From Candidatus Scatosoma sp. (GTDB lineage: Bacteria; Bacillota; Clostridia; Christensenellales; Borkfalkiaceae): a DNA stretch of 64,000 bases. Positions within the stretch are counted from its first letter, which is position 1. Each line of letters starts with the position of its first letter. Position numbers and translations under genes: made by a program. This document shows, piece after piece, positions 1,689 to 61,330 of this stretch. The notes under the pieces were generated by a model, which saw only the letters and a program-made list of their open reading frames with translations, ran no database searches and was not told the DNA's origin. The DNA lies in contig JAZOLI010000092.1 in the NCBI GenBank assembly GCA_045652965.1, positions 3,524 to 67,523 of the forward strand, read 5' to 3'.

Positions 1689-1703
1689 AGATTTTTGCAA
1701 AAC

Positions 1704-4206: not shown

Positions 4207-4231
4207 GGTAAAAAAGTTCGAAAAGAAAAAT

Positions 4232-4267: not shown

Positions 4268-4298
4268 GCTCTTTTTACGTCAACAGACGGCTTAAGGT

Positions 4299-4327
4299 TT
4301 GACAAAAGCGCGGTGGTGGTGTATAAT
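4299..4327 (+). promoter_or_regulatory. Sigma-70-type promoter of galK
   Basis: TTGACA (4299-4304), 17-nt spacer, TATAAT (4322-4327). Confidence 0.6.
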
Positions 4328-4362
4328 GATTTTACCAATTATAAAACGTGAGAGAAAGTGTT

Positions 4363-5523: not shown

Positions 5524-5535
5524 TTAAAATAAAAC

Positions 5536-5570
5536 TTGCCGCCGACTGCGGGGCAGTCGGCGGTTTTTTA
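5536..5570. terminator. Bidirectional terminator between the convergent galK and cca genes
   Basis: Stem ccgccgactg / cagtcggcgg with a 4-5 nt loop, followed by tttttt. Confidence 0.7.
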
Positions 5571-37861: not shown

Positions 37862-39265
37862 TTATTTCGTAAGCGAAGGATCGGTTAAGATGGGGGAGTT
37901 GGCGGCGAAGCGTTGCACCGATTCTACCGCGCTTTGGCAACGGCGCTTGGTTTTATAATGTTCGCCAAGACACAAAAGCTGTCCGTTTTTGTTCAAAAGC
38001 TTGTAGATATAATCTCCGCGCTTGGTTAAAGAGATGCGGAAATTGTTTTGTTCAATGTTCGTTTTATGCGTTTGAATGCCGTTTACCGCACCAACGTAGG
38101 TCGTATATTCTTCGCTAGATAAAAGCTTTTCGCCGTTGTTTGCAAACAACTCGAAATAGAACGCGTCGCTTCCGTCGGCGTCCTTGTGGCTAGTGATAAT
38201 CCACTTTCCGTTTGCATTCTCCACAATAGGGGTGGGTTCGCCGTCCTCTTCCACGGGCACTTTCACAAGATGATCTTGCACGTTTTCATCTAAAACGGCA
38301 GTTTTTGCAAAACGCTTGGTCGATTCGATCGCGCTTTCACAACGCGTGCGAGTGGGATAGTTTTCACCCATGCAAAGGAGCATGTTTTTGCCGCTTAAAA
38401 GCTTGAAAATGTAATCGCCTTTTTTAGAAAGAGTGATTTTGAAATTGCCCTTTTCAATGTTTGCCTTGTGCGTTGCAATGCCACGAAGCGCACCGCTATA
38501 CGACGTATATTCTTCGCTAGAGAGAAGCTTTTCGCCGTTAGAAGCGTGGAGCTCGAAGAAATAAGTTTCGTCTTCTGCGCTTTCCGCCTCGTCGGTGAGC
38601 ACGCGGCAAATCGTCCATTTTCCGCTATATTTCGCCGCCTCTTCCGTTTCGTCTTCGTCGTCGCCGAGTGCTTTTTGCACGGCGGCTTGTTTTTTTGCTT
38701 TTGCCTTTTCCGCCGTAGCTTTATCTCTCTTTAATTTTTGCGCGTGTTCCTTTTGTGAACGCTCTTCCACCGCCTTTGCGATCGGGTCTTTTTCTTCGGC
38801 AGGGGTTTCGTTTGCTTCCGCTTTTGCTTCCGCTTTTGCTTCCGCTTTTTTCGCAGTCTTTTTAGATGCAGTTTTTTTAGCCGTCGCTTTTTCCTGCGCT
38901 TCTCTTTCGGCTTGCTCTTGCGCTTCTTTCGCGGCTTTTTCGGCAGCTACACGCTCTTCTTCTTCGCGCTCTTCACGCTCTAAGCGTTCCCAAACGGCAC
39001 GGCGAGCGGCTTCTTTTGCCGCCTTTTCTTCTTCCGCGCTCATGGGCTTTGATTGCGCTTGAGCAGGGAGTGGCTGTGTGGTCGCGTTATCTTTTTGTGA
39101 CTTCGCTTGTTGTTCTTGATTTGATTGATTCGCTTTCGAGCGTTTGATCGAAAGGGCAATGATCACGATAAGCAAAATCACGATCGCCGCAAGCGCTGCA
39201 ATGAGCACGTATGCAAGCATAGGATTTGCTTTTAAATAATCAATACATTGATAGATAAATTCCAT
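37862..39265 (-). CDS. Membrane-anchored protein with a Lys/Glu/Ala-rich linker and two tandem YegP/DUF1508 double repeats
   Basis: N-terminal TM helix and a low-complexity linker (KAEAKAEAKAEA). YFFELHASNGEKLLSSEEYTSYSGALRGI...GDYIFKLLSGKNMLLCMGENY then repeats as FYFELFANNGEKLLSSEEYTTYVGAVNGI...GDYIYKLLNKNGQLLCLGEHY. Confidence 0.75.
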   Translation of the reverse strand: MEFIYQCIDYLKANPMLAYVLIAALAAIVILLIVIIALSIKRSKANQSNQEQQAKSQKDNATTQPLPAQAQSKPMSAEEEKAAKEAARRAVWERLEREEREEEERVAAEKAAKEAQEQAEREAQEKATAKKTASKKTAKKAEAKAEAKAEANETPAEEKDPIAKAVEERSQKEHAQKLKRDKATAEKAKAKKQAAVQKALGDDEDETEEAAKYSGKWTICRVLTDEAESAEDETYFFELHASNGEKLLSSEEYTSYSGALRGIATHKANIEKGNFKITLSKKGDYIFKLLSGKNMLLCMGENYPTRTRCESAIESTKRFAKTAVLDENVQDHLVKVPVEEDGEPTPIVENANGKWIITSHKDADGSDAFYFELFANNGEKLLSSEEYTTYVGAVNGIQTHKTNIEQNNFRISLTKRGDYIYKLLNKNGQLLCLGEHYKTKRRCQSAVESVQRFAANSPILTDPSLTK

Positions 39266-48682: not shown

Positions 48683-51040
48683 TCACTCATAATCGTCGCC
48701 TCCTTTTTTCTTTCGTAAAAATAGATAATCGGTTAAAATGCAAATGGCGGCAAAGCCAAGCAAGAGATAGGCAAGGCGGAACACTGAATCGTCGTCGCTT
48801 GCCTTACCCACTTCGATCGTTTCGCTTGTTTGGGGGAGCCCGTTAAAATCGGTGACGAACGCTTGGGGGATATACCCCGTTTTGATCTCTCCGTTTTTGC
48901 TTTCGTAAGATACGTGGAAATAAGCGTGGTCAAGCTCTTTAATTTCGCCAAGAACTGTCACTTGTGCGCCGCGAGCAAGCTCGCCCGATTTTAAAAGTTC
49001 GGTTAAATAGGGGAATTTATAAAGGGTGATCGCGCTCGTGATATAGCCCGTTTTTTGTTCTTCCGTGCCATATTCCGTGCGGTAAGCATCCGCTTCCATT
49101 GGCTCGCAAGAAGAAATTAAGGCGAGATAGGTGCGATACGTTCCTGCGGTTTTGTCATATTCGGCGAGAAGATAATATCTCTCCGTTTCGCCAATTTTGA
49201 GCGCCGTTCTTTCCCCGTTTGCTCGCTCAAAGCGCACGTAAGGAAAATGCTCCGCGCCGCTAAGCGTTTGCAAATCAAATTCGACAAGCAAGGCGTTTTC
49301 CGTCGTTTTTACCACGGAAAATTCCGCGCTTGCGTTTTCAAAAATTCTTTCGTCTGTGCCCTGCACTTTTATCGTTTTTACCGTGGGAAGCGAAAGGGCG
49401 GTCGATTGAATAAGATAATTGCCTTCGCATAAGATATACGTTTCATTTTCTTCCACGCCGAATGCAAAGGAAGTTAAAATCGGCGTTGCGTTTGGATCGT
49501 TATAATAAACGAGCGTGTCGTCGAAATTAAAGATCGCGCCGTCTTCGCGATAGAGCGCATCGTTTGCAAGCGCGTAGATCGTGCCGTTATAATCCACGCC
49601 AAGCTTCGTCGTTGCGGTGGGCAGGTTTTCACAAACTTTTTCCCCTGCTTCGATAGAAGAAGTGAACGCCGATTCCGTGAAAACGAACACATCGCTTCCA
49701 GAAAGGATATATAAATTGCCGTAAACGTCCGCCGTTAAAGCCTTTGGATAGCGTGTGGACGTTTTTTTCGTTTCCATTGCCACCCATGCGCCCGTTTCTT
49801 CGCTTGTTTGCAAGGTGTAGGCATAGTTGTTTTCGCTGATTAGATAATAGGTGCCATATACGCTTGCCGTGCCCACAATTTTGCCGTTGAAAGTGGAAAA
49901 TTGCCCGATTGGCTCGCCGTAGGTTTCCTTGTCAAGGCTATACAAAACCGCCTTTTCTTCGTTTGCAAGCAAGAGCGTTTTCTCGTTTGCGCTTACAAAC
50001 AAGGGGGGCAGGGTTGCGCTGATTGCTTTTTCAAACGTTTTCGTTTTGCGGTTATACACCGACACGCGCGCGTTTCCGTTGTCCGCGATAAAAAGTTTAT
50101 CGCCAAACAAGCAGGTATCCGTTGCCCCACTCAAACGGTGTGGGGAATCGGATGAAGCACTAATTTCAAAATTAGTGAAATTGTTCGTTTCCGTCGAATA
50201 TTGCAAAATGGTTGCATCGCTTGATGCAATCGTGTAAAAATATTTTCCGAAAGCACTCACGGCGGAAAATTCTTCCGCTTCCGATTTGAAGAGCATAGCG
50301 CTATCGCTTATTTGCGAGAGCGGATAGGCTACAAATTCTCCTGCCGCGTTCGTGCAAGCAAGAACGCCGTCGTTAATTGCGATATGGTTGATTTGCTTGG
50401 AAAAAATTGCGAAAGTTGCTTTACTCGGATCGGGCTCGGTTTGCGATTTCGGGTCGATCTTCATTAGATAATTGTCGGCGCGGACAAAATATAATTCCCC
50501 GTTCCAAAAAGACAAAGTGGAAACGTTGTTCCATTTTAAAGCGACGGGGGAAAGAGCTTCGCTTGCAAGCGAAAGAGTGTAAAGATCTTCTTGCGCGTTC
50601 GTAAAATATAAATCGTTTCCGTGGACCGTGAACGTGCCGCAGGCAAGGTCGATTTTCTTTTCCGCGCCCGTTTCTACGTTTAAGGCATAGAAATTGGTGC
50701 TAACCGAGCTATCTAAAAAATACAACGTGCCGTATTCGTCGAATTGGAGTTTGGTGACGGTGCTCTCGGGTGCGTTCTCTTCGCCGTGTTCAAATTTTTT
50801 ATATTCGCCGTCTTGACGATCGTAAACGTAAATGGCGTTTCCGTCGGCAATCGCCGTGTAGTTTTCAATAACCGCTACGTCCGTTGGAGAAGTTAAAGGC
50901 AAATATTCTTCGTAAGTTTGCGGGGCAATCAAGCGCTCCGTTTTTTCGCTCGCTTGCGCTTCAACCGATTGCGCCGCGAACGGCATCACCGTCGCGGTTG
51001 CTAAAAAAATGGAGAACATTGCAAGCATTTTTTTCTTCAT
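48683..51040 (-). CDS. Secreted repeat-rich (beta-propeller-like) protein with an SH3-like module and a C-terminal TM anchor (785 aa)
   Basis: Signal peptide MKKKMLAMFSIFLATATVMPFAAQSVEA and repeated Y/F-rich beta-strand segments. Near the C-terminus it reads ARGAQVTVLGEIKELDHAYFHVSYESKNGEIKTGYIPQAFV. It ends with a TM helix LAYLLLGFAAICILTDYLFL and the tail RKKKGGDDYE. Confidence 0.6.
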   Translation of the reverse strand: MKKKMLAMFSIFLATATVMPFAAQSVEAQASEKTERLIAPQTYEEYLPLTSPTDVAVIENYTAIADGNAIYVYDRQDGEYKKFEHGEENAPESTVTKLQFDEYGTLYFLDSSVSTNFYALNVETGAEKKIDLACGTFTVHGNDLYFTNAQEDLYTLSLASEALSPVALKWNNVSTLSFWNGELYFVRADNYLMKIDPKSQTEPDPSKATFAIFSKQINHIAINDGVLACTNAAGEFVAYPLSQISDSAMLFKSEAEEFSAVSAFGKYFYTIASSDATILQYSTETNNFTNFEISASSDSPHRLSGATDTCLFGDKLFIADNGNARVSVYNRKTKTFEKAISATLPPLFVSANEKTLLLANEEKAVLYSLDKETYGEPIGQFSTFNGKIVGTASVYGTYYLISENNYAYTLQTSEETGAWVAMETKKTSTRYPKALTADVYGNLYILSGSDVFVFTESAFTSSIEAGEKVCENLPTATTKLGVDYNGTIYALANDALYREDGAIFNFDDTLVYYNDPNATPILTSFAFGVEENETYILCEGNYLIQSTALSLPTVKTIKVQGTDERIFENASAEFSVVKTTENALLVEFDLQTLSGAEHFPYVRFERANGERTALKIGETERYYLLAEYDKTAGTYRTYLALISSCEPMEADAYRTEYGTEEQKTGYITSAITLYKFPYLTELLKSGELARGAQVTVLGEIKELDHAYFHVSYESKNGEIKTGYIPQAFVTDFNGLPQTSETIEVGKASDDDSVFRLAYLLLGFAAICILTDYLFLRKKKGGDDYE

Positions 51041-51323: not shown

Positions 51324-51851
51324 ATGAAAGTGAAAAATTACGTCAAAGCGGTGTTGTATGGTTATCCGCTGTTGGAAACGGTGAGTGAAGATTATCAGGC
51401 GCATATTCAAAACAAGGCGGCGCTTTCCGTGAGAACGGATAAATCGGCGTTTGAGCTTGCCGTGGAGCTTGCCGGCGAAGTTTGCAAAAAAAAGAACTTT
51501 GAATGGCTGAAAGGGTGTGTCGAAACGGCTTTGGACATGCTTTCTGACGTGGAGAAAACTTTGATTGCCGCAAGATATTTTGGGAAGCGGAGAAAAATGA
51601 AAAAGGCGTTGCCTTTGGACGAGCCGTTGCCGAAAACGGAGATTGCCGCTTGGAGCGAAAGCAAATATTTTCGATTTCAAAACAGGCTTTCAAAAAAAGT
51701 GGAAGCGATTTTGCTTCGGCTTGGGTTGAGTGAAAAACTCTTTGAAGAGAAATTTGCCCAAACGGAAATTTTTGAAAAAATTTACCGCTTTGTTTGCGAA
51801 GGCAAAGATCAAAAAATTTCGCAAAGGGCAGAGCGGTGGCTCAGAGAGTGA
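51324..51851 (+). CDS. Small hypothetical protein, possibly a sigma-70 region-4 / ArpU-RinA-like transcription factor
   Basis: The N-terminal NYVKAVLYGYPLLE and the central LSDVEKTLIAARYFGKRRK resemble the pattern of small phage late-gene activators. This is pattern level only. Confidence 0.35.
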   Translation: MKVKNYVKAVLYGYPLLETVSEDYQAHIQNKAALSVRTDKSAFELAVELAGEVCKKKNFEWLKGCVETALDMLSDVEKTLIAARYFGKRRKMKKALPLDEPLPKTEIAAWSESKYFRFQNRLSKKVEAILLRLGLSEKLFEEKFAQTEIFEKIYRFVCEGKDQKISQRAERWLRE

Positions 51852-51923: not shown

Positions 51924-52631
51924 TTATTCTTCGTTGTCGTAGGGCGAGCGTTTGGGTGGGCGTAAAATGAGCGCCGCAAGCACGGGCACGAGCAAGCAAA
52001 GCGCTATCAAAATGGCAATTTGCATGGGCGTTGATTGCTCTTCCTTGGGAGGCTCTTCCATTTTGTCTTGCTCGGCGTTTGCTTCTTGCCATTCGGCGTA
52101 TTCGGAATTTACATCATAGGTTAAATCGGCGGGCTTTGGAATGTAGCCGAACGAGCCGTCGCGAAGAATATACGAATACGTTTCAGAGCCGATGCGATAA
52201 TCGCCATAATAGGCGCAAGTGACGGTGATTTGATCGAGAAAACCTGAGCTTGGAACGTTCGCGCCGCCGATCGTATAATGCACGTCGATTAAACGATAGA
52301 GATAGGGGCGTTTGGGAACGTAGGGCACGGGGGTGAGATCACTCGTTTTTGCATAGCCGATCAATTTTTGAACGTATGTGTCGTCGTAGAGATATTCCAC
52401 TTTGCAAAATTCGCTGTCGGCTTCGAGAATTTTAACGTAGTAGGTTTTAGGCAACAGGAAAACGCCGCGCTTTTCATCGCGAGAAGAATAGAAAAACGCT
52501 TCGTCGGTTAGCACGCAGGCATACGATTCCGCCACGAGCACATCCGCTGAAACGGCAAGGGCGGTTGGTGTGAAAAAAGGGGATAAGAAAAATAAAAGCG
52601 GCATAAACGCCGATAAAATAAACTTTTTCAT
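51924..52631 (-). CDS. Secreted SH3-like protein with a C-terminal TM anchor (235 aa)
   Basis: Signal peptide MKKFILSAFMPLLFFLSPFFTPTALA. YYVKILEADSEFCKVEYLYDDTYVQKLIGYAKTSDL follows an SH3b-like pattern. It has a C-terminal TM helix IAILIALCLLVPVLAALIL and the tail RPPKRSPYDNEE. The ORF-track start 52985 is an antisense read-through into the terminase gene. Confidence 0.6.
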   Translation of the reverse strand: MKKFILSAFMPLLFFLSPFFTPTALAVSADVLVAESYACVLTDEAFFYSSRDEKRGVFLLPKTYYVKILEADSEFCKVEYLYDDTYVQKLIGYAKTSDLTPVPYVPKRPYLYRLIDVHYTIGGANVPSSGFLDQITVTCAYYGDYRIGSETYSYILRDGSFGYIPKPADLTYDVNSEYAEWQEANAEQDKMEEPPKEEQSTPMQIAILIALCLLVPVLAALILRPPKRSPYDNEE

Positions 52632-52685
52632 AGCTTTGATTATATCTGGTTTTTGGCGGTTGATTTTGCCGTTTGCAAGGGGATT

Positions 52686-54104
52686 ATGAGAGATATTGTA
52701 GAAAAAATTTTTCAAATTGAAAAGGAGATGGAACGGCGAAAGCAAAACGATTTTCTCGCCGCTTATAATACGGGGGATAAAATACATAAAAAGCAGGTTG
52801 CCTTTCATCAATGCAAAAAACGCAACCGCTGGGTGTTCGGGGGAAACCGCTCGGGAAAAACGGAATGTGGGGCGGCGGAATGCGCGTATATCGCAAGGGG
52901 GATTCATCCTTATAGGGAAAATCGAAAGGATGCTTGCGGGTGGGTGGTTTCCCTTTCTACCCAAGTGCAACGGGACGTGGCGCAAAAGAAAATTTTACAT
53001 TATCTTCGGCGCGATTGGATCGATGGCATCGTGATGCTATCGGGTAGAAAAGACAGCCCAGAAGACGGTGTGATTGATTTTATTCGCGTGAAAAACGTGT
53101 TTGGCGGCATTTCCGTGATCGGCTTTAAAAGTTGTGATCAGGGCAGAGAGAAATTTCAGGGCACGTCCCTTGATTTCGTTTGGTTCGATGAAGAGCCGCC
53201 CAAAGATATCTATGAAGAATGTCGCATGCGCGTGATTGATAAAAAGGGCGACGTGTTCGGAACAATGACGCCCCTCAAAGGCTTGACTTTCGTCTATCAC
53301 GAAATTTATCTTAACCGCAAAAATGACCCTGAAGTGTGGTATGAGTTCATGGAATGGGCGGACAACCCCTATCTGGACGAAGGGGAAATTGCGCTCATTG
53401 AAGCGTGTTTGGATGAAACTACTTTGCAAACTCGGCGATTTGGACGGTTTGCGAGCGGAGAAGGGCTCGTTTATCCTGAATTTGACGAGCGCGTGCACGT
53501 GATCGAGCCTTTTTCCGTGCCTAAGGAATGGCAGGACGTCGTGTCCATCGACCCCGGGCTTAACAATCCCTTGTCGGCGCATTGGTACGCCGTCGATTTC
53601 GACGACAACGTGTACGTGATTGCTGAGCATTTTGAAGCAGGAAAGGACGTCGATTATCACGCGCAAAAAATTAAGGAAATTTCCGCGCGGCTGGGTTGGA
53701 AAACGGATGGCTATGGCAGGGTGCGCGCTTTGATTGATAGCGCGGCAAAGCAAAGAACGCTTGCGAGTGTGAAAAGCGTTGCCGAACTTTTTTACGAGCG
53801 TGGTATTTTGGTTAATCCCGACGTGGATAAGGATATGTTTTCGGGGATTGCTAGGGTGAAAAGCTATTTAAACACCAAAAACGGGCTTCCCAATTTATAT
53901 ATTTTTAAAAATTGCACCGAGCTTATCAAGGAGCTCAAAGGGTACTATTGGGGAAGTGGCGATTTGCCCAAAAAGATGGACGATCACGCTTTGGACGAGA
54001 TGCGATATTATTTGATGACACGACCGAAAAAATCGCCTTGCAGGGTGGAAAAGACGGTGATTCAAAAGGATAAGGAACGCATGATTAAACGATTAAAACG
54101 ATAA
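52686..54104 (+). CDS. Phage terminase large subunit
   Basis: Walker A FGGNRSGKTE, Walker B LDFVWFDEEPP, and C-terminal nuclease-type DDHALDEMRYY. The start is ATG 52686, with TTG 52653 as an alternative. Confidence 0.85.
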   Translation: MRDIVEKIFQIEKEMERRKQNDFLAAYNTGDKIHKKQVAFHQCKKRNRWVFGGNRSGKTECGAAECAYIARGIHPYRENRKDACGWVVSLSTQVQRDVAQKKILHYLRRDWIDGIVMLSGRKDSPEDGVIDFIRVKNVFGGISVIGFKSCDQGREKFQGTSLDFVWFDEEPPKDIYEECRMRVIDKKGDVFGTMTPLKGLTFVYHEIYLNRKNDPEVWYEFMEWADNPYLDEGEIALIEACLDETTLQTRRFGRFASGEGLVYPEFDERVHVIEPFSVPKEWQDVVSIDPGLNNPLSAHWYAVDFDDNVYVIAEHFEAGKDVDYHAQKIKEISARLGWKTDGYGRVRALIDSAAKQRTLASVKSVAELFYERGILVNPDVDKDMFSGIARVKSYLNTKNGLPNLYIFKNCTELIKELKGYYWGSGDLPKKMDDHALDEMRYYLMTRPKKSPCRVEKTVIQKDKERMIKRLKR

Positions 54105-54119
54105 AAAAGGGGGTGTGTT

Positions 54120-54488
54120 ATGAAAGACAAAATTTCGGATGCGCTTTTAAAGGTCGCGCTCGGTTTTCAGGTGTCGGAAGTGACGGAAGAATATGCCGAA
54201 GTGGACGGGGCGCTGAAACTTACGAAGCGGAAACGAACGAAAAAGGACGTGCCGCCTGATCTTAAAGCCGTGCAAATGTTGCTTGGCGAGAGTGGGCAAG
54301 CGCTTGAAAACATGAGCGACGAAGAATTGGAAGAAGAGAAAAAACGGTTGCTTGCCGCACTTGAAAAAGCGGAAAAATCAAAAAAAGATGCAGGGCAGGT
54401 AAGAGAAGAAACGGTAAAAACGGTGAAAGCGGTGAGAAAACCACGCGCAAAACCGAGAAAAAGAGTGATTAGAAAAAAGGAGGATTAG
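54120..54488 (+). CDS. Small Lys/Glu-rich phage protein (possible DNA-binding / small-terminase-like)
   Basis: 122 aa with RBS GGGGGTG upstream. RKRTKKDVPPDLKAVQMLLGE loosely resembles small-terminase C-terminal segments. The tail is highly basic: RKPRAKPRKRVIRKK. Confidence 0.35.
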   Translation: MKDKISDALLKVALGFQVSEVTEEYAEVDGALKLTKRKRTKKDVPPDLKAVQMLLGESGQALENMSDEELEEEKKRLLAALEKAEKSKKDAGQVREETVKTVKAVRKPRAKPRKRVIRKKED

Positions 54489-54491
54489 TAA

Positions 54492-56354
54492 ATGAACGAA
54501 ACGGAAATTTCCCAAAAGGAAAAACAAGAGCGGAAGCTCGCGGAAGAAATCACCGCGGACTTTGAAAGGCGGCGCGAAGAACGCCGAAGTGTGGAGAGCG
54601 GGTGGCTTTTGAACTTGCACTTTTATAGCGGCGATCAATATTGCGACGTGTCGCCCTTTGGTGGACTCGCCGAAGAGGACAAGCGCTTTTATTGGCAATC
54701 AAGGCGTGTGTTTAACCATATCGCGCCTATGGTGGAAGCAAGACTTGCCAAGCTTGAACGTTTAAAACCCAAGCTTCGCGTGCGCGCTTTCTCCGACGAG
54801 GACGGCGATTTGAAAGCGGCAAAACTCGCAACCGGCGTGCTTCGCTACGCCCAAGAACGCGCTGATTTTGACGAAGTTGTTTCACGTGTGACGGCGTGGG
54901 CGGAAATTTGCGGGAGTGGGTTTTATAAAATCGTTTGGGATGAGAACGACGGTAGACAGGTGGCGGAAACGGAAAGCGGCGAGCCTATTTATGAAGGGGA
55001 TGCGAAAATTAGCGCGGTGTCGGCGTTTGAAATTTATCCCGATAGGCTGAACGCGGAAGATATCTCCGATTTGCAAAGCCTTATTCACGCGAAAATTGTT
55101 TCCGCGGACGATATTTACGAGCGATTTGGCGTGGAAGTGCAAGCCTCGGCGCTTTCTGAATTGACAGTGAACGCCTACGCTACTCCTTCGGCAGGGAAAT
55201 TGCCTTTGGACGTCACGGGGTATACGTCTTTGCCTTGTGAAAACGGCGTCATCTTGATTGAACGCTATACAAAACCGAACTCCGTTTATCCCAACGGTAG
55301 GGTGGAGATCGTGGCAGGCGGGAAATTGCTGTTCGTGGGGGATTTGCCCTATGAAAACGGGGAACGAAAGGAACGCATCTTTCCCTTTGTTAAACAAGAT
55401 TGTATGCGTTTGCCTGCTTCCTTCTTCGGGTCGAGCATCGTCGATCGCTTGATCCCCGTGCAAAGGGCGTATAACGCCGTGAGAAACCGTAAACACGAGT
55501 TTTTAAACAGGCTTTCCATGGGCGTTTTGACGGTGGAGGACGGCTCGGTGGATACGGACGAGCTTGCGGAAGAAGGGCTGTTGCCTGGGAAAGTGCTTGT
55601 CTATCGTCAAGGCGGAAAAGCGCCTGAAATGCTCGATTGCGGAAGCGTGCCTGCGGAATTTGCCGCGGAAGAACAATGGCTTGAAAAGGAATTTTCGTTG
55701 ATTAGCGGCGTTTCAGATCTTTTACAAAGTTCTACGCCTGCTCGCGTGACGAGTGCAACTGGTTTGCAACTTTTGCTCGCGCAGGACGAATCTCGATTAT
55801 CGGCTACCGTTTCCGCAATGGAGCGCGCAGTAAAGGACGTAGGACGGCAAATTTTACGATTATATCGCCAGTTTGCAGGGAGCGCTAGGCTTATCACCTT
55901 TACGGGGGAAAATAAGAGAACGCAAATCCATTATTTTAACGCGAGCGAGCTCGCCGTGAGCGACGTGCAATTTGAAGCGCAGGATTCGACGAGCCCCGAA
56001 GAGAAGAGAGAAACTATTTTGAAGCTTTACGAAGCAGGAATTTTGACGGATGGCGATGGGAAACTTTCGGTGGAAAATAAAAACCGAGTTTTGGACGCGT
56101 TTGGCTTTGGTAGCTTTGAAAATGCGAGGGATATTTCCGCGCTTCATATCGCAAAAGCAGGAGAAGAGAATTTGGATTTGAAAGGGGAAAAGGTGGAAGT
56201 GGACGTTTACGATGAGCACGATTTACATATCACCGAACATACGAGATTTTTATTATCGGCAGAGTTTAAGCGGTGCAAGAACAAGGAAGAAGTGAAAGAG
56301 CACTTTATCGCGCATATCGATGCGCATAAAGCGGCAATGAAAAAGGAGGTTTAA
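54492..56354 (+). CDS. Phage portal protein
   Basis: 620 aa located directly after the terminase gene. NLHFYSGDQY lies near the N-terminus and DVYDEHDLHITEHTRFL near the C-terminus. RBS AAGGAGGA lies upstream. Confidence 0.75.
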   Translation: MNETEISQKEKQERKLAEEITADFERRREERRSVESGWLLNLHFYSGDQYCDVSPFGGLAEEDKRFYWQSRRVFNHIAPMVEARLAKLERLKPKLRVRAFSDEDGDLKAAKLATGVLRYAQERADFDEVVSRVTAWAEICGSGFYKIVWDENDGRQVAETESGEPIYEGDAKISAVSAFEIYPDRLNAEDISDLQSLIHAKIVSADDIYERFGVEVQASALSELTVNAYATPSAGKLPLDVTGYTSLPCENGVILIERYTKPNSVYPNGRVEIVAGGKLLFVGDLPYENGERKERIFPFVKQDCMRLPASFFGSSIVDRLIPVQRAYNAVRNRKHEFLNRLSMGVLTVEDGSVDTDELAEEGLLPGKVLVYRQGGKAPEMLDCGSVPAEFAAEEQWLEKEFSLISGVSDLLQSSTPARVTSATGLQLLLAQDESRLSATVSAMERAVKDVGRQILRLYRQFAGSARLITFTGENKRTQIHYFNASELAVSDVQFEAQDSTSPEEKRETILKLYEAGILTDGDGKLSVENKNRVLDAFGFGSFENARDISALHIAKAGEENLDLKGEKVEVDVYDEHDLHITEHTRFLLSAEFKRCKNKEEVKEHFIAHIDAHKAAMKKEV

Positions 56355-57085
56355 TGTTTATGAAAGAAAAGGAGAACGTTTACGAAGAAACGATGCAAAC
56401 GGAGATGGGCGTTATCACGCAAGCGGGGCAGGAAAAGCAAACGATTGAAAACGCTGCGCCCGAAAAGGTCTCGACGGATTTGGGGAAGTTTCGTAGCGTA
56501 GACGCCCTTTTAAGGGCGTACGAGGCGTTGGAATCGGAATTTACGAGAAGAAGCCAACGACTCAAAGAGCTGGAACGGGAGGCGGATAATTCGCTTTCCT
56601 TGGCGGAAGGTGTGTGCGGCGAGACAAACGGGGCGGAAAAGCTTCGCAAAAACGCCGCGCAAAAAAGAGCGGAAGTGAAAGATTTTGATCGTTTTGTTTC
56701 CGAACTGGAATCGGTGCGCGCGCAAACCGAAAAAACACCAGAAAGCCAAGCGGAGCAACCCGAACCTCCTATCTTTGGCGGGCTCGGACAAGACGCTTTG
56801 GAAAGCGAAATTGGCATAGAGCAAACAATCGCAAAACCGTCCGTCGCGGGTGGGCGCGGGGAAGAATCTCTTTCCGACGACGCGCTTTACGAGCTTGTCA
56901 AAAAGGATGAAAAGGTGCGCTTGAAAATTATCGGGGAATATCTAAATTCGATAGGAAAATCGGGCGCACCTCTTATGAAAGGCGGCACGGGAACGCTTGT
57001 CGCGCCGCCCTTAAAGCCCAAAACGATTGACGAGGCGGGCAATATGGCGCTCCGTTTCTTTAAGAAAGAGAGCGCGCAGGCGTAA
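56354..57085 (+). CDS. Phage scaffolding-like protein
   Basis: Acidic, Glu/Ala-rich and helical, 243 aa, sitting between the portal and capsid genes. Its start overlaps the portal stop (TAATG). Confidence 0.55.
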   Translation: MFMKEKENVYEETMQTEMGVITQAGQEKQTIENAAPEKVSTDLGKFRSVDALLRAYEALESEFTRRSQRLKELEREADNSLSLAEGVCGETNGAEKLRKNAAQKRAEVKDFDRFVSELESVRAQTEKTPESQAEQPEPPIFGGLGQDALESEIGIEQTIAKPSVAGGRGEESLSDDALYELVKKDEKVRLKIIGEYLNSIGKSGAPLMKGGTGTLVAPPLKPKTIDEAGNMALRFFKKESAQA

Positions 57086-57119
57086 AAATCAAAGTTAAAA
57101 AAAGGAGAATTTAAAAATT

Positions 57120-58292
57120 ATGATTAGTGTTGAAACAGCGGATAACGCATTGAAATCTTTTTATTTGGACGCGGTGACGGAGGCGCTTGATCTCAAAGCA
57201 AATCCCTTGCTTGCGCAAATTGCAAAATCTTCTATCGACGTTGTGGGGAAAGACGTGAAAAAGCTCGTGAAATACGGCGTCAACGGTGGTGTTTCCGCAG
57301 GAAGTGAAACGGGTGCGTTGCCTGCTTCTTCTAATAGTGACAAGGTGGTGTTTACATCGACTTTGAAAAACCTTTACGGTACGATTGAAATTTCCGACAA
57401 GGCACTTCGCGCTGCAACAGGCAGCGAAGGCGCGTTCGTTAACCTTTTGAACGACGAAATGCAATCGCTTGTAAAAAGTGCATCCTTTAATTTTGGTCGT
57501 ATGCTTTACGGCGACGGTACGGGACTTCTCGCTACGGTGGAAGATATTGGCGACAATAACCAGCTTACCCTTTCGAGCGTGAAAGGAACTTTTGAAGGTA
57601 TGATCGTCGATTTTGCAGACGCTTCGGGCAACGTTGTCGCTTCTGCTGAAGGAAGAAAGATCGTTTACGTGGATAGAAGAAATAAGACGATCGTTGTAGA
57701 TGGTACAACTTTGGAAGGCAAAATTTCTGTTGGCGCAGGCATGTATCTTAGGGGTTCTAAAGATTATGAAATTACTGGCCTTGCCGCGATTTTCAACGAA
57801 GATAGCGATCTTTACGGCGTGGCGCGTTCGACGGCTTCCGTTATGAAACCTTATATTAAAAGAGACGTTGAATATATCAGCGAAAGTAGCATTCAAGAAG
57901 CGATTGATACAATCGAGGAGAATTCGGGAAGCAAAATCAACTTGATCGTTTGTTCTGGCGGCGTTAAGCGTGCTCTTTTACAATATTATCGTGATTACTC
58001 TATCAATATGCCCACGATCGAATGCGCTGGTGGGTATAAGGCGTTGAACTTTAACGGCATTCCCGTTGTGGTGGATAGATTCTGCCCCGAGGGAACGATG
58101 TATTTGCTCAACACCGACGATTTCAAAATTCATCAGCTTTGCGATTGGAAGTGGCTTGAAGGGGAAGACGGTAAAATCTTAAAGCAAGTGCCTGGTAAAC
58201 CCGTCTATACCGCAACGCTCGTTAAATATGCCGAGCTTATGTGTGAAAGACCGAATGGGCAAGGTATGCTCACGGGCATTTTAGAAGACTAA
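57120..58292 (+). CDS. Major capsid protein candidate
   Basis: 390 aa in the position after the scaffold gene, with RBS AAAGGAGAA upstream. A strong terminator hairpin follows directly, as is often seen after highly expressed capsid genes. Confidence 0.6.
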   Translation: MISVETADNALKSFYLDAVTEALDLKANPLLAQIAKSSIDVVGKDVKKLVKYGVNGGVSAGSETGALPASSNSDKVVFTSTLKNLYGTIEISDKALRAATGSEGAFVNLLNDEMQSLVKSASFNFGRMLYGDGTGLLATVEDIGDNNQLTLSSVKGTFEGMIVDFADASGNVVASAEGRKIVYVDRRNKTIVVDGTTLEGKISVGAGMYLRGSKDYEITGLAAIFNEDSDLYGVARSTASVMKPYIKRDVEYISESSIQEAIDTIEENSGSKINLIVCSGGVKRALLQYYRDYSINMPTIECAGGYKALNFNGIPVVVDRFCPEGTMYLLNTDDFKIHQLCDWKWLEGEDGKILKQVPGKPVYTATLVKYAELMCERPNGQGMLTGILED

Positions 58293-58334
58293 AGCGTGCG
58301 ATATCGCGTTGTGTTTAGACGATAACGCATGAAC

Positions 58335-58366
58335 GTAGCCGCCCGTTTTTTGGGCGGCTACTTTTC
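58335..58366 (+). terminator. Strong intrinsic terminator immediately after the capsid gene, inside the cluster
   Basis: Perfect 10-bp stem gtagccgccc / gggcggctac with a 7-nt loop, followed by tttt. Confidence 0.75.
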
Positions 58367-58389
58367 TCAAATTAAGGAGGTTGGTTTAT

Positions 58390-58947
58390 ATGACTGTTAA
58401 AGAAATTATATTGGCTGCGGCGTGTGAGCTTGGGATTGGGGAAGGCGTGGAAAGCTATTTGGCAGGTGGTTCTAAAGACGCGCAAGCGGAAGCAAACACG
58501 AAGGCGCTTTTGCGTTGTTTTAATCTCGTGGAGAATGAAGTGGCGCTTGATTATTTGCCTCTGCTCGCCGAAGAAGAAATGGCTTCGGATACGGGTGCGA
58601 TTGAATATGCTGCGCTATCCCGTGAAGCGGTGCGCGTGCTTAGCGTTCGCGATGAGTGGGGAAATGAAGTTCCCTTTACGCTCTTTCCCGATTATCTCAA
58701 AACGCAACCGAATAAAGTGTGCGTGCGCTATACCTATCTTCCCAAACCCAAAACGCTTGAAGATAAAAGCGATTTTACCTTGAACGCTTCCGTGCGATTG
58801 TTCGCTTGCGGCGTTGCCGCGGAATATGCCCTTGCAAGCGGTCTTTTTGAAGAAGCTGCCGTTTGGGATAAAAAATATAAGAATGCTATTAAGGCGGCAT
58901 ATTCTTCCAAGCCGGCGCGACGTATTCGTTCGCGGGGGTGGGCGTGA
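58390..58947 (+). CDS. Hypothetical phage structural protein (in head-completion/adaptor position)
   Basis: 185 aa. RBS AAGGAGG lies 9 nt upstream of ATG 58390. Confidence 0.55.
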   Translation: MTVKEIILAAACELGIGEGVESYLAGGSKDAQAEANTKALLRCFNLVENEVALDYLPLLAEEEMASDTGAIEYAALSREAVRVLSVRDEWGNEVPFTLFPDYLKTQPNKVCVRYTYLPKPKTLEDKSDFTLNASVRLFACGVAAEYALASGLFEEAAVWDKKYKNAIKAAYSSKPARRIRSRGWA

Positions 58948-60308
58948 TGAAAAAGGCTTATAAAAAACCACTGGCTTTTAAAACGGAAAAGGTTGTTCGA
59001 AGATACGATACTTTTGAAATGGCTGATCGTTTGACGAAAACAAAAACCTTTCCTATTGAGCTTGCGGATAACGCCGATATTGGCGATGGGAACGCGCGCA
59101 TGGGCGTGGGTGTCATCGTTCACGAACTTTTCGATGGGAAGGGCGTTTACTACGATTGGGATTTGGGCGCGCCGAAAAGCTTTTTCTATTGCGGTCAAGA
59201 ATTGGGTTTGTTGACTTATCAAAACAAATTTTATTTCTTCAACCGAAGCGATAAGACGTATCGCTTAGAGCACACTTTTAACGGAGAGATGAAGTTTTTG
59301 GAAGCGCAGGATAAAGAGGGCGTTTTTCATCCTTATTTTATCGGCGCGGACGGTGTGTTTTCTTACGATCAAACAAGCGGCATGAAGAAAATTTTTGAGC
59401 TTGCTTGCTTGCCCGTTGCTACCGTTTTTCAGGGTAGAATTTTTGCCGCTACCGACCATTCCATCGTTTACTGCGAACCCTTTTCTAAGGCGGTTTTTAC
59501 CGAAAGTATCGACGGCGGCGGAAAAGTCGTTTTGCCGTCGGATACCGGTGAAGTGGTGGATATGGTGGCAACGTCTAACGCCGTTTACGTGTTTTGCGCG
59601 TACGGCATTTGGAAGTTGTCGGCGGCTGGTAGCGCGCGCGATTTTTGTTTGGAAAGAGTGGGCTTTACCGGCAGGAGAATTTTAAAAGGTTCGGCTTGCG
59701 CCGTTGGCTTTTCGGGCGGAGAGAAGGTGCTCTTCTTTGATGAATATGGGCCTTGGAAGCTTGAACACTCGGGGACGATGGAGATTTGTCGAAATTTGAC
59801 GTATCCCATCCGAACTGATAAGAAAGGGTGCGAGCACGCCTGTTTGAACGGGAAAGTTATTTACAATTATGGGGCGTTAGATGGTTCGGTGAGGAACGTG
59901 GTGATTGACGTGGAAACCGATCAAGCGTATCACTCGTTTACTTGCGAAGGATTGTCCGATCTAAAAGGACAAGGCGTGGGGGTTGTGGATAGCTTTTTAT
60001 ACGCGCTTGTGGACGGGGAAACTTTGCCCATACACAAGCTTAGTGAAATCGCTTCTCCGCCCTGCGATTTTTATCTTTCGGGCGTGAAAACGCTTCGGCA
60101 ATTGAAAATTTTTGGCGAAGGGCAAGTGACGGTGAGCGTTTCGAGCGAATATGGCACGAGAACGTTTGCGTTGCAAACGCAAAACGGTGTGGCGAGCGTG
60201 GACGTGCGGCTCAAAGGAGAGCTCTTTTGCTTGCGTTTCGTCATTGGCGATCATGCCGTTTTGCGTGGTTTGGACGTGGAACTTTGCACGCTTAAAGGCT
60301 TGCGATAA
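58947..60308 (+). CDS. Hypothetical phage structural protein, beta-rich (453 aa)
   Basis: The ATG overlaps the upstream stop (TGATG). Y/F/G-rich beta-strand repeats are present, with no motif I recognise. Confidence 0.55.
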   Translation: MKKAYKKPLAFKTEKVVRRYDTFEMADRLTKTKTFPIELADNADIGDGNARMGVGVIVHELFDGKGVYYDWDLGAPKSFFYCGQELGLLTYQNKFYFFNRSDKTYRLEHTFNGEMKFLEAQDKEGVFHPYFIGADGVFSYDQTSGMKKIFELACLPVATVFQGRIFAATDHSIVYCEPFSKAVFTESIDGGGKVVLPSDTGEVVDMVATSNAVYVFCAYGIWKLSAAGSARDFCLERVGFTGRRILKGSACAVGFSGGEKVLFFDEYGPWKLEHSGTMEICRNLTYPIRTDKKGCEHACLNGKVIYNYGALDGSVRNVVIDVETDQAYHSFTCEGLSDLKGQGVGVVDSFLYALVDGETLPIHKLSEIASPPCDFYLSGVKTLRQLKIFGEGQVTVSVSSEYGTRTFALQTQNGVASVDVRLKGELFCLRFVIGDHAVLRGLDVELCTLKGLR

Positions 60309-60323
60309 GGGGGTGAACAACTT

Positions 60324-60800
60324 GTGAAAATTGACATTATTTCTTATACCGATACGCAATATGCGGCGCTCACGGAAGAGCAAATTCAAGAAGTGAAAGC
60401 GGCGCAACTGGAAAAGAATCGCTTGGAGAGAGCCCTAGCAGAAGCAAAGCTGAAAGAAAAACACCGCTTGATCGAACGCGGGATTTTCCTTTCGGGTATT
60501 TGGGAAGCTTATAAAGAAAAATTGCAAGCGGAATACGATCAAAAAATTGAAAGCTTGCGCGATTCGCTTCTCTTTTATTTGCGCTTTTCAACCAAGCCCG
60601 ATTCCTATGGGACGGGCTACAGCGTTGATTATAATTTGTCTGTGGAAGAGCGGTTTGCCATTGTAAAACAATATTATGAAATTACCTACACGAACGCGAA
60701 GGATCGTTTAAACGCCTTTAAAGAAGATAAGGTCGCCGTTGTATATCTCGAAGATCTTTATTCGGCACTGTACGATCATTTCTTAAATCAAGCTTCGTGA
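60324..60800 (+). CDS. Hypothetical phage protein with a coiled-coil segment (158 aa)
   Basis: GTG start with GGGGGTG about 9 nt upstream. EEQIQEVKAAQLEKNRLERALAEAKLKEKHRL is coiled-coil. Confidence 0.5.
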   Translation: MKIDIISYTDTQYAALTEEQIQEVKAAQLEKNRLERALAEAKLKEKHRLIERGIFLSGIWEAYKEKLQAEYDQKIESLRDSLLFYLRFSTKPDSYGTGYSVDYNLSVEERFAIVKQYYEITYTNAKDRLNAFKEDKVAVVYLEDLYSALYDHFLNQAS

Positions 60801-60814
60801 TAAGGCAAAAAAAT

Positions 60815-60845
60815 CCCGACGATTTTTCGTTCGGGGTTTTTATTT
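60815..60845. terminator. Bidirectional terminator between the capsid cluster and mazF
   Basis: Bulged 7-bp stem cccgacg / cgttcggg, flanked by an A-run upstream and tttttatttt downstream. Confidence 0.6.
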
Positions 60846-60857
60846 TGCTGGGTAAAT

Positions 60858-61208
60858 TTAGTTGTTTACGGGGAAGCCAAGGCTGATTAAGATGGCGCGA
60901 TTGACTCGGCTCATCGTGGCTGGCGGCAATTCTCCAATACGCTCCTTTAAACGCCGCTTATCTAACGTGCGGATTTGTTCTAGCAAGATTACGCTATCTT
61001 TGACAAGACCATAAGCGGACGGAAGCTCGATGTGCGTGGGCAATTTTGCTTTGTTGATTTTGCTCGTCACAGCCGCCGCGATAATCGTGGGGGAATATTT
61101 GTTGCCTATGTCGTTTTGTACGACGAGAACGGGGCGGATTCCCCCTTGCTCGCTTCCCACCACGGGGGAAAGATCAGCATAATATAATTCACCGCGTTTT
61201 ACTTGCAT
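60858..61208 (-). CDS. mazF: MazF/PemK-family endoribonuclease toxin (EndoA-like)
   Basis: [31 protein letters not shown]...AAVTSK...LPTHIEL...[17 protein letters not shown] in a 116-aa protein starting at ATG 61208. Confidence 0.85.
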
Positions 61209-61330
61209 ATCCACATACCTCTTTTGAAAACCGAACGAAGCCCTCACTTTATTATATGTAAAAAGGCACGTTCGGCGTTCGCTTTATACATTATAGCCCG
61301 ATGGATAAAACTTTATACAAAAGGGAAGAG

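Follow-up and report, generated by a model that had tools for sequence, protein, structure and literature searches.

A conserved podovirus-derived gene module in Christensenellales chromosomes is a probable GTA-like element

A set of phage packaging and capsid genes that sits among housekeeping genes raises the question of whether it is a dying prophage, a satellite, a piece of a working phage or a machine that the host has kept. We addressed this question for a 64-kb stretch of Candidatus Scatosoma sp. DNA (the window), in which the original prediction had described an intact, head-only module. All eight of its co-directional ORFs are present and intact on the + strand, from the start of TerL at 52686 to the end of the last ORF at 60800, and the overlapping junctions TAATG (56352-56356) and TGATG (58945-58949) occur in the sequence as described. 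From RBS spacing, or from the genes called on a contig that is 99% identical, we revised the starts of TerL (52686), adaptor (58390), nozzle (58947) and scaffold (56360, which has the better RBS spacing and agrees with the gene call on contig L081). The conserved unit extends upstream of the eight-ORF cluster to about 48683 and comprises the following features.

48683-51040, - strand: 785-aa exported protein (Sec signal peptide, beta-propeller-like repeats, C-terminal membrane anchor)
51324-51851, + strand: 175-aa putative dedicated regulator (motif resemblance)
51924-52631, - strand: 235-aa exported protein (signal peptide, C-terminal membrane anchor), divergent from TerL
52638-52645, + strand: candidate module promoter element GATTATAT (-10-like ATTATA; conserved position)
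52686-54104, + strand: large terminase TerL, ATPase plus RNase H-like nuclease (Pfam, PHROGs)
54120-54488, + strand: short small-terminase-like protein, 122 aa (orthologue PHROG matches)
54492-56354, + strand: portal protein, P22/SU10 type (Pfam, PHROGs)
56360-57085, + strand: acidic scaffold-like protein (position and composition only)
57120-58292, + strand: major capsid protein (MCP), podovirus type (NCBIfam, PHROGs)
58335-58370, + strand: GC-rich hairpin and T run between capsid and adaptor genes (folding energy)
58390-58947, + strand: predicted head-to-tail adaptor, T7 gp11/SU10/Pa223 type (AlphaFold2 and Foldseek)
58947-60308, + strand: predicted tail hub/nozzle, P22 gp10, Sf6 gp8, T7 gp12 class, 453 aa (AlphaFold2 and Foldseek)
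60324-60800, + strand: DUF7934-like protein, 158 aa, terminal gene of the module (profile-profile match)
60804-60849, no strand assigned: bidirectional terminator, a hairpin between an A run and a T run (folding energy)

The identities proposed for TerL, portal and capsid are backed by Pfam, PHROGs and NCBIfam profiles. TerL matches Pfam Terminase_6N (1.3e-9) and Terminase_6C (5.4e-5) as well as phrog_2 (6.6e-28); its translation contains GGNRSGKT, LDFVWFDEE and DDHALDEMRY, and every one of 61 orthologues has a Walker A motif. The portal protein matches P22_portal (4.4e-24), SU10_portal (2.6e-12) and phrog_156 (5.9e-48). By profile, the capsid protein is a podovirus MCP, matching NCBIfam NF033394 capsid_maj_Podo at 1.2e-69 (score 235, cut-off 80 bits) and phrog_14242 at 1.7e-52, and 315 GTDB species genomes carry full-length relatives of it.

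The 122-aa basic protein is present as predicted and can be read further as small-terminase-like. Its N-terminal 60 residues are conserved and its tail is basic. Of 43 orthologues, 36 match phrog_309 'terminase small subunit' (best 7.8e-9) and 30 match phrog_23444, in alignments that span only profile positions about 194-252 of 319 and lack the N-terminal part of the TerS profile. Because the copy in the window falls below the PHROG threshold, we make this assignment by orthology. Between the portal and MCP genes, an order found in P22-like phages, lies the gene for an acidic protein to which family searches gave no match; position and composition make it scaffold-like.

The head-only label proved wrong, since the cluster also encodes an adaptor, a tail hub or nozzle and the TerS-like protein. 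The first two had been counted among three unknowns. For the AlphaFold2 model of the 185-aa protein (pLDDT 90.5), the top 28 Foldseek matches in the PDB (E 2.8e-6 to 3e-2) consist almost entirely of podovirus adaptors, and the remainder are neck or connector chains of tailed phages. They include KHP30 7wmp_m (2.8e-6), Pa223 9nwi_A (1.3e-5) and SU10 7z47_B (2.0e-5), and further N4 9lc0_H, T7 gp11 7box_M and the KP32 tail tubular protein A. On its predicted structure, this protein is a podovirus head-to-tail adaptor. The model of the 453-aa protein (pLDDT 84.2) matches the Pa223 tail 9nwi_Y (4.7e-16), VP1 8zkk_O (4.2e-12) and P22 gp10 8eap_D (6.9e-12; TM 0.60/0.58), further Sf6 gp8 7sg7_S and the T7 tail 7ey7_s, and its top BFVD matches are 'Bacteriophage P22, Gp10, DNA-stabilising' (best 1.8e-18). 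Judged by its modelled fold, it is a P22 gp10/T7 gp12-type tail hub (nozzle). The third of these proteins, of 158 aa, could be placed only as a relative of DUF7934. It gave no match in a PDB sequence search, and hhalign aligned it with a family of 290-360 aa found at the module end in Christensenellaceae (probability 94.5%, E 8.1e-8), a member of which matches Pfam DUF7934 at 3.7e-70. It is a candidate tail plug or needle, or another virion component.

Both predicted terminators are real hairpins. The one after the capsid gene (58335-58361 plus the T run) has an 11-bp stem with 8 G-C pairs and folds at -22.9 kcal/mol (z -5.4); a strong hairpin of differing sequence follows the MCP gene in nearly every relative compared. 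It is likely an attenuating terminator or an RNA-stabilising hairpin that sets the capsid:tail stoichiometry. The hairpin at the module end (-21 kcal/mol, z -6.3, with 0 of 200 shuffles folding equally well) is a bidirectional terminator that closes both the module and the convergent mazF. At the other end, GATTATAT lies about 45 nt 5' of the TerL start and adjoins the divergent 235-aa gene at its start codon. Its ATTATA recurs at the same relative position 5' of TerL in nearly all loci of all branches and no good -35 element accompanies it, leaving GATTATAT a candidate module promoter.

Three upstream genes travel with the module. The 175-aa gene, whose start agrees with the one called on the 99% identical contig, lies directly 5' of the module in 41 loci (dN/dS 0.12-0.19). 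Its conserved motifs ER.L...(R/K)YF and SER.YFR.Q.RL resemble a sigma region-4 or phage late-activator helix-turn-helix, from which we infer a putative regulator; matches to the sigma factor 1l0o in the PDB (E 0.48) and to Sigma70_r4 in 1 of 34 members are sub-threshold. The 785-aa gene (dN/dS 0.15-0.19) also lies upstream in 41 loci, including a distant Christensenellaceae branch; its product matches Pfam DUF5050 (7.3e-7) and weakly NHL, and its signal peptide and C-terminal TM helix were read from the translation. The 235-aa gene (cluster c10; dN/dS 0.07-0.12) sits between the regulator-like gene and TerL in 37 loci, and Pfam and PDB sequence searches gave no match to its product.

We then compared the locus across relatives, taking for synteny the best 80 of the 315 MCP matches, from species-level genomes. 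The carriers, at least 80 species-level genomes, are Ca. Scatosoma, Borkfalkia and Christensenellaceae MAGs. In 80 of these best 80 loci the frames are intact and the order is constant: 785-aa (-), regulator-like (+), 235-aa (-), TerL, TerS-like, portal, scaffold, MCP, adaptor, nozzle and DUF7934-like. Across ten genome pairs, most with synonymous divergence above 1, dN/dS ranged from 0.00 to 0.58 over all eight module genes, and all eight are under purifying selection. Values were 0.01-0.13 for TerL (60-91% identity across 80 species), 0.04-0.10 for the portal, 0.03-0.14 for the MCP and 0.00-0.07 for the DUF7934-like gene. The nozzle diverges fastest (0.12-0.26, identity down to about 20%), followed by the scaffold-like gene, which is still constrained (0.14-0.58). 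TerL evolves as slowly as mgtE, and TerL and portal distances correlate with mgtE distances (Pearson 0.84-0.86). Because the distances of MCP and adaptor follow those of the host gene only weakly (Spearman 0.13-0.21), some exchange between lineages is possible. The host-like codon style noted by eye holds in numbers, with an RSCU r of 0.88 to the host versus 0.94 when the host gene set is split in two and its halves are compared.

These data already contradict a slowly decaying prophage stump without current function, which we regard as highly improbable. Such a stump would account for phage-derived genes without the rest of the phage genome, and in some distant relatives recombinase-bearing insertions do split TerL. 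Yet the frames are intact in the window and in the relatives compared, selection has persisted despite the synonymous divergence, 80 species-level genomes share one gene order, and the regulatory elements (ATTATA box and post-MCP hairpin) are conserved. The site is also free of a fuller prophage in all relatives examined, namely 80 + 35 loci.

The surroundings are housekeeping genes: mgtE, a PLP enzyme, HAD, RadC and an M20 peptidase on one side, and MazF and pgi on the other. Of the predicted mgtE-pgi locus, the upstream part is conserved (mgtE, 785-aa exported, regulator-like and 235-aa exported genes), whereas the downstream neighbour depends on lineage. Among the ORFs scanned in the 64-kb window, all but some small ones, we saw no gene for an integrase, for replication, for a fibre or receptor-binding protein, for ejection or for lysis, in line with the local absences first reported. 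That the locus is the structural part of a still-infectious phage, its genome split or its remainder beyond the window, is the least probable reading. The closest cultured phages, actinobacterial phages with 27-28% MCP identity, do have the order terminase, small ORFs, portal, scaffold-sized ORF and capsid in common with it. Against this, housekeeping genes extend for 47 kb on the upstream side and, as seen in the 99% identical contig, for 7 kb on the downstream side, such flanks recur in every relative examined, from GTDB and IMG/VR alike, and vertical inheritance across genera is un-phage-like.

A capsid-forming satellite (cf-PICI-like), which would make its own small capsids and borrow tails, with or without lysis functions, from a helper phage, had also been proposed; it does not fit and is very unlikely. 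The likeness of a terminase, portal, scaffold, capsid and connectors without fibres or lysis to such satellites is superficial, and IMG/VR classes the related stretches as viral. No integrase, excisionase, primase or replication gene, repressor or att repeat was found beside the cluster, in the window or in relatives, however, and neither a fixed, vertically inherited position beside the same host genes across genera nor a TerL evolving at a housekeeping rate is expected of a mobile satellite. Because the cluster encodes its own podovirus nozzle, a borrowed tail tube would not be needed.

Synteny, selection, codon usage and flanks thus support well the original view of a domesticated packaging and capsid machine rather than a recent or decaying prophage. 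Because the module is intact at one chromosomal site across a whole group of uncultured gut Clostridia, a GTA-like element is likelier than a dying prophage; this option, preferred from the start, fits best. We conclude that the module is probably a vertically inherited, podovirus-derived, particle-forming GTA-like element ('viriform') carried on the chromosome of a Ca. Scatosoma-like bacterium within the Christensenellales. In such an element, the ATTATA-box promoter upstream of TerL would be activated either by the 175-aa protein itself or, via this protein, by a host signal. Scaffold and capsid protein would build a procapsid on the portal, with the hairpin after the capsid gene cutting read-through into the tail genes. 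TerL and a truncated TerS-like protein without the usual N-terminal DNA-recognition region would fill heads with chromosomal DNA by a headful mechanism that has at most a slight sequence preference. The portal would then be closed by the adaptor and gp10-like nozzle, which together would make up a stubby tail core; the DUF7934-like protein might be another part of the virion or a plug. Genes for attachment (fibre or receptor-binding) and for release (lysis) would lie outside the cluster, or be absent, and the particles may transfer DNA to other cells.

A domesticated particle could instead benefit the host without delivering DNA into recipients, through fibre-less DNA export or protection (eDNA, nutrient, decoy) or PBSX-type killing or lysis. 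The missing fibre, receptor-binding and ejection genes agree with this, and the two linked exported membrane proteins hint at an envelope-related function. Tail-protein genes (805 aa; phrog_5302, 1.6e-30) adjoin the module in some distant relatives and would have been lost or moved in the Scatosoma lineage. For FpGTA, the podovirus-like GTA of Faecalibacterium, the authors likewise leave open DNA delivery versus PBSX-like action (PMC12946183). We nevertheless think a non-transfer role rather unlikely: adaptor and nozzle are intact and under purifying selection, as if a functional tail channel were still needed, and because fibre and lysis loci are split off as a rule in known GTAs and in FpGTA, their local absence is weak evidence.

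The GTA-like reading has a parallel in the recently described FpGTA, which forms 40-nm particles containing about 8.5-kb host DNA. Its cluster encodes TerL, portal, MCP, adaptor and a P22-gp10-like nozzle (PDB 8eap), and the genes for fibre and lysis are found at a distance of 125 kb (PMC12946183). The two modules are analogous, but their capsid families differ. The same study reported that host fragments of about 4.1 kb and about 6.3 kb from Christensenellaceae MAGs are packaged in a GTA-like way (QANA01 sp019420265 and HGM11616), and assigned no gene cluster to this packaging (PMC12946183); Borkfalkiaceae DNA makes up about 13% of a mouse VLP 'transductome' (bioRxiv 10.64898/2026.07.08.737213). 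The Scatosoma-type module is a candidate genetic basis for this Christensenellaceae packaging, to which it is linked by circumstantial evidence.

The eight co-directional open reading frames of the original prediction are all present between window positions 52686 and 60800. They form a module of 8.1 kb, or 12.2 kb when three linked upstream genes are included. Both expected overlaps between neighboring genes were found (TAATG at 56352-56356 and TGATG at 58945-58949), as was a hairpin 3' of the 390-aa gene (58335-58361, followed by a T run; -22.9 kcal/mol, z -5.4) and another that closes the cluster (-21 kcal/mol, z -6.3). Between the capsid and adaptor genes, nearly every relative has a strong hairpin, of differing sequence, and nearly all have an ATTATA, a -10-like box, ≈45 nt 5' of TerL. 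Composition is host-like, as had been claimed by eye: GC content is an unremarkable 0.477 in the module versus 0.487 in host genes, and codon usage correlates between module and host at 0.88, compared with 0.94 between halves of the host gene set.

Genes of the module in order, with assignment, basis, and range of dN/dS over ten genome pairs. Likely starts are from gene calls on L081, a 99% identical metagenome contig.
TerL, likely start 52686: large terminase; Terminase_6N/6C, phrog_2 6.6e-28; dN/dS 0.01-0.13
122 aa, basic: small-terminase-like (TerS-like), by PHROG matches of its orthologues; dN/dS 0.00-0.08
620 aa: portal; P22_portal 4.4e-24, phrog_156 5.9e-48; dN/dS 0.04-0.10
243 aa, acidic, likely start 56360: scaffold-like by position only, with no family match; dN/dS 0.14-0.58
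390 aa: podovirus-type capsid protein; phrog_14242 1.7e-52, NCBIfam NF033394 capsid_maj_Podo 1.2e-69; dN/dS 0.03-0.14
185 aa, likely start 58390: head-to-tail adaptor; AlphaFold2 model and structure matches; dN/dS 0.06-0.22
453 aa, likely start 58947: tail hub/nozzle; AlphaFold2 model and structure matches; dN/dS 0.12-0.26
158 aa: DUF7934-like; profile-profile match to a longer family; dN/dS 0.00-0.07

The module had been described as head-only, with three proteins of unknown function at its 3' end. Profile searches of these three (185, 453, and 158 aa) against PDB sequences gave nothing, and two of them were resolved by structure prediction only. The model of the 185-aa protein (pLDDT 90.5) matches mostly podovirus head-to-tail adaptors, including those of KHP30, Pa223, SU10, N4, and T7 (gp11) as well as KP32 tail tubular protein A. 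For the 453-aa protein (pLDDT 84), the best match is the hub/nozzle of Pa223 (4.7e-16), with further matches to VP1, Sf6 gp8, T7 gp12, and P22 gp10 (8eap_D; 6.9e-12, TM 0.60/0.58); in a viral structure library, it retrieves "P22 Gp10, DNA-stabilising" proteins at 1.8e-18. Because an adaptor and a hub/nozzle thus stand beside the head and motor genes, the head-only description does not hold: beyond a head and a packaging motor, short-tail core proteins are encoded as well. Portal, adaptor, and hub/nozzle of a P22/T7-type podovirus tail machine are all present, and no needle or plug, tailspike or fiber, or ejection protein was recognized in the cluster.

Matches to phrog_309 ("terminase small subunit") were found for 36 of 43 orthologues of the 122-aa protein, the best at 7.8e-9, and these align only to positions ≈194-252 of the 319-position profile. 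Since only the middle of the profile is covered, the N-terminal part appears to be missing, and we assume this part to be the DNA-binding domain. The 158-aa protein is related to, but shorter than, a 290-360-aa family (hhalign 94.5%, E 8e-8) that forms the terminal gene of the module in other lineages and belongs to Pfam DUF7934. A PDB match of this family to hemagglutinin HA2 (E ≈0.006) was rejected as compositional, being coiled-coil noise. Along the Christensenellaceae branch (L044-L080, e.g., locus L065:13189-15318), three genes stand in place of the 158-aa terminal gene. They encode a protein of ≈300 aa whose N-terminal part is a coiled coil, a protein of 74 aa, and a DUF7934 protein of ≈320 aa; no family was matched by the first two.

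Three genes upstream of TerL are always linked to the module in relatives:

48683-51040, minus strand: 785-aa exported beta-propeller-like protein with a C-terminal membrane anchor
51324-51851: 175-aa protein with conserved ER.L..RYF and SER.YFR.Q.RL motifs
51924-52631, minus strand: 235-aa exported, membrane-anchored protein

The motifs of the 175-aa protein suggest a possible late activator or sigma-region-4-like regulator. Pfam and PDB profile searches with the 175- and 235-aa proteins returned only sub-threshold noise, so this reading stays at the level of motifs. The two exported proteins, which have no detectable relationship to each other, may function in release or serve as a kin-specific receptor.

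Full-length relatives of the capsid protein occur in 315 species-representative genomes, and we compared the best 80 of these 315 matches (76-56% identity) in detail. They come from animal and human gut metagenome-assembled genomes (MAGs) assigned to Ca. Scatosoma, Ca. Borkfalkia, Christensenellaceae, and unnamed Clostridia. Conservation of the locus, proposed as a check on the original prediction, was borne out for gene order and the upstream side: gene order is identical in 80 of 80 loci as far as each contig extends, and the upstream neighbors of the module are also kept across these species-level loci. Purifying selection was found as well, with intact frames and dN/dS of 0.00-0.58, well below 1, across all eight genes. 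This selection and the synteny contradict the view that the cluster is a decaying prophage remnant, which we consider extremely improbable. The fuller prophage that such a view would place at the same site was found in none of 115 related loci (the 80 and a further 35).

TerL is conserved to a similar degree as mgtE (75-100% versus 72-99% identity), and TerL and portal distances track mgtE distances with Pearson coefficients of 0.84-0.86. Capsid and adaptor distances do so less well (Spearman 0.13-0.21), leaving room for some exchange between lineages. At shorter range, synonymous divergence between the window and L081 (47189-62798) is patchy from gene to gene despite the 99% identity. Values of dS reach 0.33 for the portal, 0.20 for TerL, and 0.17 for mgtE, and lie at 0.01-0.03 for the TerS-like, scaffold, adaptor, DUF7934-like, and 235-aa genes, which suggests recent tracts of homologous recombination between strains.

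The chromosomal context of the cluster is fixed, and its downstream neighbor varies by lineage. Most Scatosoma-type genomes have a dUTPase, trmB, and an ABC transporter after the module, Borkfalkia-type genomes have membrane proteins and phosphoglucomutase, and the window and two close relatives have mazF and pgi. No replication, integration, or lysogeny genes were found in the window, on L081, or in the loci of relatives with up to 10 kb of flank, and neither the window nor the relatives have an integrase, a replication module, or att sites beside the cluster. In a Pfam scan of the larger window ORFs outside the module and its linked genes (≈32 ORFs), all were housekeeping or unannotated. An infectious phage split between sites is unlikely, given that the flanks are housekeeping genes everywhere.

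The alternative of a capsid-forming satellite, also raised in the original prediction, has its closest parallel in the cf-PICIs, which are likewise small chromosomal clusters with their own terminase, portal, and capsid genes but no tails. The cf-PICIs, mobile and patchily distributed, come with an integrase, regulators, replication genes, and att sites. The window cluster, in contrast, has no integrase, replication genes, att sites, or sign of mobility; its site is fixed, and it has a nozzle of its own. We therefore find the satellite reading unsupported and very improbable.

Several other features of the window deserve mention. A MazF/PemK-type toxin gene (60858-61247, minus strand; Pfam 9.2e-36) is convergent to the end of the module. 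It is not preceded by a MazE-like antitoxin ORF, as the ≈150 bp to pgi contain no same-strand ORF of at least 60 aa, and the mazF-pgi pair otherwise follows the module only in L002 and L081. A 771-aa protein (18575-20890, minus strand), 32 kb from the module, has an N-terminal membrane helix and no Pfam match at 1e-5. Toward its C terminus, a 467-aa protein (37862-39265, minus strand) carries three copies of DUF1508 (1.2e-31), an unusual multi-copy arrangement for this small domain.

More distant relatives of the module are carried by 35 IMG/VR "viral" contigs, ≈30 of them with the same module order (capsid identity 46-57%). Where flanks are available, they encode a serA-like dehydrogenase, an aminotransferase, RNase J, and a type I restriction system, all housekeeping functions. 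About 30 of these records (L083-L113) are chromosomal module fragments and are likely misclassified as viruses or proviruses. Some distant relatives have two extra large genes directly 3' of the nozzle gene, encoding proteins of 805 aa (≈800) and ≈680 aa:

L091:11968-16407: extra genes after the nozzle
L093:7988-12392: extra genes after the nozzle
L098:10805-15273: extra genes after the nozzle
L095:13768-16595: extra genes after the nozzle

The 805-aa protein matches phrog_5302 (tail protein, 1.6e-30). Neither protein has a homologue in the window, and they may represent an attachment apparatus missing from its lineage. Three of the distant IMG/VR relatives have just a C-terminal portion of TerL adjoining the portal gene:

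L109:3376-6512: partial TerL locus
L112:about 640-6250: partial TerL locus
L103:2604-7140: partial TerL locus

Upstream in L109, the product of an ORF at 3376-4905 (510 aa) is a large serine recombinase, matching Resolvase at 7e-26 and Recombinase at 1.8e-25; an ORF of 536 aa comes next. In these relatives TerL seems to be split by an insertion bearing a recombinase, which could be either a gene-reconstituting switch or an inactivation. We also looked for an ancestral phage with a complete genome. Among cultured phages, the closest are actinobacterial, with a capsid identity of only 27-28%; in one of them, terminase, small ORFs, portal, scaffold-sized ORF, and capsid follow in the order seen here. 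All 35 IMG/VR relatives proved to be the chromosomal module and not phages.

Gene order, selection, host-tracking TerL and portal, and host-like codons all support the part of the original prediction that described a domesticated, gene transfer agent (GTA)-like element. The cluster consists of caudovirus-derived packaging and structural genes free of replication, integration, and lysogeny functions, and it is inherited vertically with its host under purifying selection, traits expected of GTAs and other viriforms. From these genes we infer particles, cargo, and transfer. A host or dedicated signal, possibly acting via the 175-aa protein, would turn the module on, and the portal and scaffold would seed capsid assembly. 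TerL and its TerS-like partner, which is without the usual N-terminal region, would then package chromosomal DNA by the headful. Adaptor and nozzle would seal the portal and make a short tail, with the DUF7934-like protein as a putative further virion or plug component. Fibers and lysis functions would be encoded elsewhere or be absent.

In human fecal virus-like particles (VLPs), GTA-like packaging of host fragments was reported for the Christensenellaceae MAGs HGM11616 (≈4.1-kb reads) and QANA01 sp019420265 (≈6.3-kb reads), with no gene cluster assigned to either (PMC12946183). Borkfalkiaceae DNA makes up ≈13% of a mouse VLP transductome (2026 preprint, bioRxiv 10.64898/2026.07.08.737213). 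Fragments of ≈4.1 and ≈6.3 kb are smaller than the 8.1-kb module, as expected for a GTA. The link between the cluster and the published Christensenellaceae packaging is circumstantial. Our tentative proposal, which we rate as possible in its entirety, is that the cluster is an order-wide, anciently domesticated, podovirus-derived GTA of the Christensenellales, independent of the GTA of Faecalibacterium prausnitzii (FpGTA), inherited together with a regulator of its own and two exported surface proteins, and the basis of the 4-6-kb packaging of Christensenellaceae DNA in human fecal VLPs. A domesticated particle with a function other than gene delivery is a serious alternative, consistent with both the missing fibers and the linked envelope proteins, although we judge it rather improbable.

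Under the GTA reading, the cluster provides a concrete, testable genetic candidate for packaging that has been observed but not explained in an important gut lineage. Hundreds of species of this host-associated, heritable lineage carry it in conserved form, and we found no description of it in the literature searched. Its eight genes and three linked genes amount to a minimal parts list for a short-tailed DNA-packaging particle, and they offer markers with which to detect such elements in metagenomic data, currently mislabeled as viral contigs (35 IMG/VR records).

Among known systems, the tail machines of the podoviruses P22, Sf6, T7, SU10, and Pa223 resemble the cluster, whose portal is of P22/SU10 type and whose adaptor and hub/nozzle folds match theirs; sequence identity to the solved structures is only 9-14%. 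P22 genes are ordered terminase, portal, scaffold, coat, adaptor, hub, and this order is common to the cluster and P22-like podoviruses. Unlike them, the cluster has no tailspike or fiber, ejection or internal-core proteins, recognizable needle, or lysis, replication, and lysogeny genes. PBSX of Bacillus subtilis is, like the cluster as judged from its genes, a chromosomally fixed, phage-derived particle maker of a Gram-positive host. PBSX is myovirus-like, spans ≈28 kb, has its own lysis genes and repressor, and acts as a tailocin; the cluster has none of its myovirus-like build, lysis genes, or repressor. Host fragments of 13 kb are packaged by PBSX (PMC12946183). Alphaproteobacterial RcGTA-type elements and the cluster are both domesticated head-tail clusters free of replication and integration genes, and both are vertically inherited under purifying selection. 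For RcGTA, PMC12946183 cites a TerS in which the DNA-binding domain is absent, and accessory loci elsewhere are described in PMC12946183 and PMC9662315. RcGTA is siphovirus-like, with tape measure, tube, and baseplate, whereas the cluster is podovirus-like, with adaptor and nozzle only. Beyond shared folds, we found no sequence relationship between the two, and the RcGTA neck proteins 6te8 and 6toa were nonsignificant in Foldseek (E 0.26-0.29).

To our knowledge, GTAs have been characterized genetically in only a few lineages, and almost all are siphovirus-like and alphaproteobacterial. FpGTA, published in 2026, is a podovirus-like example from a gut Firmicute. Alongside TerL, portal, capsid, and adaptor genes, its 10.5-kb operon has genes for a TerS that carries no DNA-binding domain and for a nozzle assigned to PDB 8eap; the 40-nm particles of FpGTA carry ≈8.5-9 kb of host DNA, and a second locus 125 kb away encodes a BppU-like fiber and lysis genes (PMC12946183). 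FpGTA is known from particles, DNA, and proteome by experiment, and the window cluster from genes alone. Both are chromosomal, podovirus-like, similar in size (10.5 versus 8.1 kb), and nearly ubiquitous within their host groups, and the main cluster of neither includes fiber or lysis genes. From TerL through portal, capsid, and adaptor to the P22-gp10-like nozzle, both have the same order, that of FpGTA as read from consecutive accession numbers and annotated functions (Supplementary Data 2, PMC12946183), and both nozzles match 8eap. The FpGTA TerS has no evident DNA-binding domain, and the TerS-like protein of the cluster appears not to have the N-terminal profile part assumed to bind DNA. 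The two differ in host order (Oscillospirales versus Christensenellales), in the position of the TerS gene, which follows TerL in the window, and in the gene between portal and capsid (a Prp-like protein in FpGTA, the acidic scaffold-like protein here). FpGTA has no reported counterpart of the regulator-like gene and the two exported-protein genes that always accompany the window module. The name given to its capsid is "N4-gp56 family"; that of the window, set apart by annotation as capsid_maj_Podo, does not match this family, and an NCBIfam scan at E ≤ 0.01 gives only NF033394. As the capsid families differ, an independent origin is possible, and the cluster offers a test case for whether podoviruses have been domesticated more than once.
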